A stretch of DNA of 64,000 nt from a virus, in IMG/VR virus record IMGVR_UViG_3300028920_000002, positions 64,001-128,000 of that record. One strand, given 5' to 3'. Below are positions 46,413 to 47,473 of this stretch, piece by piece. The number at the start of each line of letters is the position of its first letter. Within the stretch, counting starts at the first letter, position 1. The position numbers and the translations under genes were made by a program. A model generated the notes under the pieces. The model had not been told where the DNA came from. It did no database searches and worked only from the letters and a program-made list of their open reading frames with translations.

Positions 46413-46803
46413 CCCACATGAGCTGGGCCCGATGTTTCTCTGCGCGGAGCTCGACGAGCGACATGTCAAAGACATCAAGCGCAGACATGAGCATTTCATG
46501 CAGACGAAGGGGGTCGATGAGGACCTGGCCTACGTCGAGTACAACGATGATGCTGCGTTCTACTACTCTGTCCCCATCAGCGGGGATGTAGAGCGCGGTG
46601 AGGTGGAAGACCTGCTCTACGACAAGGGGTACGTCGAGGTGCCTCAGGTTGCTACGGAGGGGGCCGAGCAGGTTGAAGTGTATGGCTTGCGTCTAGTCAT
46701 CAGCGAAGACACCTTCTTCTGGAGTGCCTATGTCAAGCACACTGCATGCGAGGTGAGCTCTCAGGACATCTATTTCAAGACGTGGGGAGGGAAGGATGCT
46801 TGA
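46387..46803 (+). CDS. hypothetical protein
   Basis: 138-aa acidic ORF. Confidence 0.65.
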   Translation: MFLLATVNDPHELGPMFLCAELDERHVKDIKRRHEHFMQTKGVDEDLAYVEYNDDAAFYYSVPISGDVERGEVEDLLYDKGYVEVPQVATEGAEQVEVYGLRLVISEDTFFWSAYVKHTACEVSSQDIYFKTWGGKDA

Positions 46804-47473
46804 ACAGTCCTATCTCACCCGTCCACTGGTGAGCCCCGATGACCGCTTCTTCGGAGAGACGCCTAAGCATGAAGGTCTGCCACAGGAGACGGTGTTCAAG
46901 AAGGGGGCGTTTGCGCTCCAACTGTGCGAACGACGTAGCGGCAAGTCCATGCTCGCAGAAGCGATGTCGTCACACATCCGGGACAAGCTTCGGGAGCAGG
47001 AATTCGCCCGCAAGATTCTGCCGGTAGAGGTGACTGGCGTCGATGTCTCTGGCAGCATGACGCGAGAGCTACTCGAGCTCCCTTCAGGTACCAGGAGCGG
47101 TCGAGTCAGCTCTGGCTCGCTCAATCTGCAGAATGTCCTGAAGGTGGACGTGCCGGCGAGCTATCAGTCGAAGCTGTACCACCTCGATGCCCCGCTGAAG
47201 GCGCAGCGCCTCATCATGAACAAGGCGGACTACGACGACATCCTCACCTGGTCTCAGAAGGCTGCGAGGCAGAACGCCAAGCTCATCAACTTTGGGTTGG
47301 CCTACGGCGCTTCCCCGAAGCAGGTGGCTGACGCCATCTATCACGGAGGGAAGACCGCTACTCGCTTTCTCGAGGACGCGTACTTCCACGGTCCGAAGTA
47401 CGTGCTCAAAGCACCTGCCATCACCAAGGAAGACCGCAAGGCATATCAACACGGAGGAGATGATGACGCATGA
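46796..47473 (+). CDS. motif-mosaic protein of unknown function
   Basis: contains RRSGKS, DVSGSM, GTRSGRVSS..NLQN and AKLINFGLAYG motifs in 225 aa. Confidence 0.65.
   Translation: MLEQSYLTRPLVSPDDRFFGETPKHEGLPQETVFKKGAFALQLCERRSGKSMLAEAMSSHIRDKLREQEFARKILPVEVTGVDVSGSMTRELLELPSGTRSGRVSSGSLNLQNVLKVDVPASYQSKLYHLDAPLKAQRLIMNKADYDDILTWSQKAARQNAKLINFGLAYGASPKQVADAIYHGGKTATRFLEDAYFHGPKYVLKAPAITKEDRKAYQHGGDDDA

Follow-up and report, generated by a model that had tools for sequence, protein, structure and literature searches.

Phage genomes are mosaics of genes and domains. The closest described small proteins assembled in frame from pieces of essential genes come from plant mitochondria, where chimeric ORFs linked to cytoplasmic male sterility (CMS; examples are pcf, T-urf13 and orf79) combine essential-gene fragments with unidentifiable sequence. 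These ORFs were made by short-homology recombination and are co-transcribed with an essential gene, and their products are mostly membrane-active and harmful. Among phage proteins, DSAD1 blocks the defence sensor DSR2 by occupying its trigger-binding site. We describe here a 225-aa phage ORF composed of pieces of a family A DNA polymerase (PolA) and of the phage's own major capsid protein (MCP). This patchwork ORF is old, is under purifying selection in its C-terminal part and lies in a conserved ligase cassette. It differs from the CMS ORFs in its genetic system, in being kept by purifying selection and in showing no sign of membrane activity or harm. Its likeness to DSAD1 is one of concept only, in that a small phage protein and a conserved one would compete for the same binding site; known sensor blockers, unlike the patchwork ORF, are not built from fragments of the trigger sequence.

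An intact reading frame in a ligase cassette

The window analysed comprises 64,000 nucleotides, from base 64001 to base 128000 of an IMG/VR virus record that is 186,723 bp long and has direct terminal repeats. The source of this 187-kb phage is marine sediment, and its depth reaches ~3,500-fold in one run. Coordinates below are those of the window unless genome positions are given, and the features of the locus are collected in Table 1. An earlier, sequence-only reading of the window had described the patchwork ORF as intact, provided with a Shine-Dalgarno sequence and coupled to the ligase gene, which was borne out by the absence of stops, by a GGAGG ahead of the start and by overlaps on both sides. 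The ATG overlaps the stop codon of the upstream 138-aa ORF (ATGCTTGA), and the start codon of the ligase (ATG, 47460) is situated within the patchwork ORF, 14 nt from its 3' end. The ligase itself consists of adenylation and OB domains only. The codon-usage log-likelihood of the patchwork ORF is 0.315 per codon, compared with 0.246 +/- 0.148 in the long ORFs of the genome, and is positive in all segments of the frame; the other five frames over the same stretch have lower codon scores and contain 3-13 stops.

Table 1. Features of the ligase cassette and of the patchwork ORF (window coordinates)
Feature	Residues	Position	Strand	Basis
Frame with conserved 3' part (~54 codons), start uncertain		46065..46412	+	59 % over 54 aa with the first small gene of the homolog's L019 contig
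Upstream 138-aa cassette ORF		46387..46803	+	38 % identical to the 139-aa ORF preceding P0003
Shine-Dalgarno GGAGG		46786..46790	+	ATG 5 nt further on; read from sequence
Patchwork ORF, 225 aa		46796..47473, stop included	+	no internal stops; coding signature
MCP patch 1	42-93	46919..47074	+	MCP 29-81, 45 % identity, E 1.6e-5
PolA motif 2 (GRVSS..NLQNV)	97-118	47084..47149	+	profile and hhalign alignments
MCP-like patch 2 (DYDDIL)	132-155	47189..47260	+	MCP 231-250; kept in P0003
C-terminal block common with P0003	134-219	47195..47452	+	59 % identity over 86 aa
PolA motif B/O-helix and next helices	156-205	47261..47410	+	unchanged between both family members
Two-domain ATP-dependent DNA ligase		47460..48593	+	phrog_114, E 2e-83; PF01068, PF14743

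No sigma-70-type promoter and no plus-strand terminator were found in 45500-49300, and the small ORFs neighbouring the patchwork ORF have no match in PHROGs or Pfam. The gene order common with three complete relatives (G001-G003) stops at about 45634-46006, and the four-gene ligase cassette (46006-48593) is syntenic with the homolog's L019 contig only. An exact match to the patchwork protein is on record from this genome only, and both ends of the ORF are spanned, with 0 differences, by contigs from two other runs. The Logan contigs of the source run (~3,500-fold depth) are broken inside the ORF (46786-47028 and 47191-47595), with longer pieces over the flanks; these breaks might reflect strain variation.

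Polymerase and capsid pieces of the patchwork ORF

We compared the patchwork protein with all 2,067 frames of at least 50 codons in its own genome. The four best matches belong to two proteins only and are interleaved. One is the phage's own family A DNA polymerase, a 649-aa PolA (genome 1740-3686, minus strand). The other is its MCP, a 388-aa frame (genome 47538-48701; phrog_2522, E 5e-9) that is 80 % identical in the three complete relatives and shares ~30 % identity with that of Salmonella phage Arash, which is, with Vibrio phage D69, a distant relative within phrog_2522. Profiles built by ourselves gave the ORF 37.2 bits for MCP and 28.6 bits for PolA, the best of 2000 shuffles reaching 3.5 and 3.4 bits, respectively, and no single known family explains the protein: PolA covers only residues ~97-205 and the first MCP patch lies outside this stretch, as the sequence-only reading had anticipated in calling the ORF a collage of unrelated conserved proteins. 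Besides the patchwork ORF and the true genes, only one small ORF and a UDG-like gene score above 4 bits with the two profiles. A frame that lies outside the window, at genome 8795-9673 (minus strand), scores 41.9 bits against the self-built PolA profile; this score most likely comes via the uracil-DNA-glycosylase domain present in two of the polymerases of the profile, which suggests that the frame is a free-standing UDG-like gene.

The polymerase-derived part was delimited with several profiles. Pfam DNA_pol_A (PF00476) matches the ORF in two stretches with an E of 4.8e-7, at 29.5 bits and therefore short of the gathering cut-off of 34.3, and only profile positions 115-132 and 203-246 are involved. 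phrog_17 also matches (E 8e-7), and hhalign against a PolA alignment covers residues ~97-205 (96.6 %, E 5e-10). Within the genome, residues 100-118 correspond to PolA 358-376 and residues 157-211 to PolA 472-519; the ORF is nearer to the general PolA consensus than to the phage's own PolA (37 % over 38 aa). Motif 2 (TGRLSS..PNLQNIP) is found at residues 100-114, and the O-helix signature RxxxKxxxFxxxYG at residues 158-171, with R158, K162, F166 and Y170 kept. The ORF thus resembles PolA in having motif 2 and then motif B, in PolA order, followed by ~35 further residues, and differs from it in having only ~110 of the >380 domain positions and in a motif spacing reduced from ~115 to 44 residues. 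Motif A (DYSQIELR, with the catalytic aspartate) is absent from the alignments, the DYDDIL string of the ORF fitting the capsid protein better; motif C (HDE), the thumb and the exonuclease have no counterpart in the ORF, and the protein stops 50 residues past motif B. The full palm/thumb/fingers domain of ~380 positions is not present. The spacing of about 45 aa and the lack of motifs A and C, both pointed out from the letters alone, are therefore confirmed. In the ESM Atlas, the search returned only sub-threshold leads to short viral clusters annotated as PolA (score 0.76). Because the ORF has 225 aa, no motif A or C, and no thumb or exonuclease, and stays below the Pfam cut-off, it is probably not an enzyme.

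The capsid-derived pieces were delimited in the same way. phrog_2522 directly matches the ORF (E 5.9e-5), over 42-82 of its ~320 profile positions only, and our MCP profile gives 23.3 bits for patch 1 (profile 19-63) and 12.1 bits for patch 2 (213-235). The likeness to large-phage capsid segments proposed by the sequence-only reading thus proved correct, with the phage's own MCP as the match. Patch 1 is the longest block conserved between the MCP of the clade and its ~30 %-identical relatives (IRDxLRE..FxRKIL and flanks). It retains 11 of the 15 family-invariant positions, compared with 13 of the 37 variable ones (Fisher p 0.014), which suggests a capsid-like constraint or a distant donor, and not necessarily selection. 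In patch 2, residues 134-153 are 55 % identical to MCP 231-250 (E 0.005 among 2,067 frames; hhalign 63 %, E 7e-5). The origin of this patch is ambiguous, since it spans only 20-24 residues and hhalign equally aligns it with the PolA helix before motif B. The ORF is like an MCP of phrog_2522 in having its N-terminal hallmark stretch and a second stretch of 20 residues, and unlike it in holding ~70 of 375 residues, in two pieces with polymerase sequence between them. An HK97-type fold is impossible, and the alignment does not extend over most of the profile with its N-arm, E-loop, P and A domains. The product can be neither a polymerase nor a capsid protein.

Short motif matches can be coincidental, and two of the four motif classes named by the sequence-only reading are so. 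The polymerase and capsid motifs are supported by profiles and by the phage's own genes, but the Walker A and vWA MIDAS motifs are attributable to chance. For the former, the pattern GxxxxGK[ST] is absent and the SGKS string sits in the MCP-derived stretch, aligned to EGKE of the MCP; no terminase or P-loop family matches the ORF in the Pfam and PHROG profiles or in its own genome. For the latter, DxSxS occurs by chance at a rate of 0.05 per 225 aa in the genes of this genome, and no vWA match was obtained at E <= 10. None of the terminase or vWA genes of the genome matches the ORF.

An origin of the patchwork from polymerase and capsid pieces is well supported. At the nucleotide level, the patches are 51-68 % identical to the MCP and PolA genes of the phage itself, and third positions are close to random. 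Searches of 5.8 billion and of 1.84 billion proteins returned no nearer donor, so that the patches are old. Hence, of the earlier suggestion that the ORF archives recombined fragments of the phage's own core genes, the origin fits but the usable archive does not, since the pieces are too old and diverged for recombination. AlphaFold2 predictions were of low confidence, both for the whole protein (pLDDT 39) and for the conserved block with a 2-sequence alignment (pLDDT 55).

A homolog carrying other pieces

A HMMER search of 1.84 billion representative proteins identified one relative of the ORF, P0003 (351 aa, E 1.4e-22), carried by a 3.2-kb JGI contig (Ga0315534_1021025) and by a Logan contig from another sample. 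Its gene order is a small ORF, a 139-aa ORF, P0003 and the ligase, with the ligase start overlapping as in the patchwork ORF. Between the two cassettes, identity is 59 % in the C-terminal block, 54 % in the ligase and 38 % in the upstream ORF, and pN and pS in the block are 0.26 and 0.59. Since the block is conserved above the ligases and pN is below pS, selection maintains it. Conservation extends throughout the block, beyond the polymerase hallmarks, and R158, K162, F166 and Y170 are all unchanged. The N-terminal halves differ and cannot be aligned. Motif 2, the DYxDIL stretch and motif B are common to both proteins, whereas P0003 is without the N-terminal capsid patch and has instead a 100-aa virion-protein domain. 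It also has a 50-residue tail and a stretch like MCP 112-144 (phrog_2522, E 0.002). A motif-A-like string of P0003, aligned with PolA motif A by hhalign, turned out to be part of the unrelated virion-protein domain, and an Exo III-like similarity of its tail was too weak to retain (1.0 bit). As P0003 carries other pieces, the C-terminal module of the family is conserved and its N-terminal half gains and loses in-frame patches.

The gene is absent from the whole of the three complete relatives G001-G003 and is therefore dispensable. Ligase identity separates three deep lineages, formed by this genome, by the phage of P0003 and by the trio of G001-G003; in the trio, the ligase has the same length and ~52 % identity and lies in another neighbourhood, 10-18 kb away. 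A search for related loci in viral contigs returned no further member with the protein, and the block alignment retrieved only true polymerases there; in metagenome contigs it retrieved only the homolog's L019 contig.

The virion-protein domain of P0003 (residues 112-212) shares 60 % identity with the N-terminal 105 residues of a ~556-aa protein family (P0004-P0033; E ~1e-27, down to 1e-29). This family comprises more than 30 clusters, and its genes belong to the virion module of phages whose capsid gene is of the SU10 type; it is large and uncharacterised, with a very conserved 105-residue N-terminus. It is absent from the four genomes of this clade, from the PDB and from cultured phages, and has no Pfam or PHROG match. 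On one contig, two ~556-aa tandem paralogs (L061:8001-9752 and 9811-11562) lie downstream of the SU10-type capsid gene, and in P0032 and P0034 the domain of the family follows a twin-arginine-like signal peptide.

Other small proteins with capsid fragments were observed in this group of phages. G003 encodes a 68-aa ORF (L030:2281-2487; genome 182780-182986, plus strand) in which a basic N-terminus is followed by the MCP E-loop stretch (MCP 52-97, 17.6 bits, 13 of 20 residues identical in the core). In the window, a 62-aa ORF (58270-58458, plus strand) directly precedes a 1031-aa ORF at 58454; its residues 29-55 resemble MCP 269-295 (MCP profile score 13.3 bits, borderline once multiple testing is considered), this patch is nearer to the MCP of the relatives than to that of the phage itself, and residues 1-26 of the 62-aa ORF are paralogous to the beginning of another ORF, at 57408-57995. 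In a conserved 'mini-MCP' family of 123/124 aa (P0072, at L065:7001-7372, and P0069), the N-arm and the E-loop of the MCP are present (57-60 % identity to MCP 6-118), a basic Trp-rich insert takes the place of the segment between them, and the tail is acidic; P0072 is encoded well away from capsid modules, among small accessory genes including Cpn10-like and Acb2/Tad1-like ones. A scan of 153 gene-family profiles gave about ten other unverified partial matches between small ORFs and larger genes, with comparable scores; the capture of fragments may therefore be a mutational trait of a general kind that is not specific to the capsid gene. One of the few paralog pairs of the genome lies at 6804-7262 and 8343-8882 of the window (genome 70804-71262 and 72343-72882, plus strand; 48 % over 91 residues, E 1.6e-24).

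Possible origin and role

Our preferred account, which we put forward tentatively, is that the ORF encodes a genuine, selected, non-catalytic chimeric accessory protein, in which a polymerase relic and capsid patches form a surface-imitating binder. Its C-terminal module (about residues 134-219) would be a relic of the PolA fingers, with the O-helix and later helices preceded by a short capsid-like helix, and its variable N-terminal half would combine motif 2 with an ancient in-frame copy of the best-conserved N-terminal MCP stretch. A polymerase copy in the ligase cassette may have decayed while repeated illegitimate recombination pasted in fragments of other phage genes. The product would have no enzyme role and would bind by imitating capsid or polymerase surfaces and so occupy their partner, which could belong to the host, as a sensor, or to the phage, as an assembly or replication factor. 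Capture of cDNA by a phage reverse transcriptase is unsupported, since the genome encodes no such enzyme. The phage's PolA and MCP genes have a DY..LQ microhomology in common; because the PolA string is specific to this genome, its use as a recombination junction stays speculation.

Several other explanations were weighed against this account. The capsid and polymerase patches might act as a decoy, binding sensors of MCP or PolA without activating them and thereby blunting abortive infection, which we consider unlikely. Both patch sources are reported targets of STAND sensors, Avs7, Avs8 and Avs10 recognising MCP and Avs19 recognising family A polymerases (PMC13581612). In addition, the accessory regions of relatives repeatedly hold small MCP-fragment proteins, one of which has an Acb2/Tad1-like anti-defence gene nearby, the cassette of the patchwork gene is variable and missing from three relatives, and the capsid patch retains family-invariant residues. 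However, the idea is weakened by reports that Avs sensors recognise whole conserved core folds, Avs19 needing the entire polymerase core domain (PMC13581612), and such folds cannot be re-formed by patches of 20-50 residues. Moreover, a sensor would be expected to be triggered, and not inhibited, by a copied activating epitope, and conservation of the protein is highest in the polymerase-like C-terminal block and not in the capsid patch. That same block adjoins the ligase gene and keeps invariant the O-helix residues that contact nucleotides in polymerases, and the ligase has no DNA-binding domain of its own; together with the stop/start overlap seen in both family members, this could indicate a ligase helper, in which the motif 2/O-helix module would have kept DNA or nucleotide binding and would aid nick finding or coupling to replication. 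We doubt this explanation, since ligases of the same length and ~52 % identity work without the gene in three complete relatives, since gene adjacency alone is weak evidence, and since the capsid patches and the virion-protein domain of P0003 are left unexplained. The latter domain, being the complete N-terminal domain of a virion-module family missing from the genomes of the clade, would fit a weapon against competitors, whose assembly-interface pieces might poison the capsid or tail assembly of other phages as a dominant-negative subunit; the capsid patch of the 62-aa ORF, nearer the MCP of relatives than its own, points in the same direction. This is very unlikely for the patchwork ORF, whose capsid patch is nearest the phage's own MCP type, so that it would risk poisoning its own assembly.

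Two further explanations deny the protein any function. The ORF could be debris, a decaying second polymerase gene and gene scraps that happen to remain together in an open frame with an inert product. The low-confidence folds, the unalignable N-terminal halves, the limitation of the gene to two family members with relatives lacking it, and the other partial gene fragments that seem present in these genomes all speak for debris. Nevertheless, two lineages with ligases of only 54 % identity and nearly saturated synonymous sites have both preserved the open frame, the C-terminal block exceeds the ligase in conservation and its pN lies far under its pS, codon usage is typical in all segments, and the Shine-Dalgarno sequence and the translational coupling are retained in both members, all of which makes debris decidedly unlikely. 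An assembly or computational chimera, suggested by the contig breaks of the source run, is improbable to the point of being negligible: the pieces are diverged (45-55 % amino-acid identity) and not exact copies, the frame, codon usage and Shine-Dalgarno sequence are intact, and the contigs of two further runs cross both ends unchanged. The independent ortholog P0003, with the same neighbours in another sample, excludes an artefact.

The non-catalytic chimeric accessory protein that we favour would extend the known mosaicism of phages to a smaller scale, the unit of exchange being here 20-100 residues within one small protein, kept by selection. Its pieces come from the most conserved parts of the polymerase and of the capsid protein, and scraps of core genes are thus one route by which orphan phage genes can be born. 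A practical warning follows for annotation, which, when based on motifs, would name this gene a DNA polymerase. That the clade repeatedly makes modular mimic proteins from capsid, polymerase and foreign virion pieces, which would join a conserved C-terminal module to exchangeable N-terminal patches and, as trigger mimics, inhibit host sensors or the assembly of rivals, seems to us a doubtful generalization. If the pieces do act as mimics, phages would have a new means of interfering with the recognition of their conserved proteins by sensors or assembly partners.
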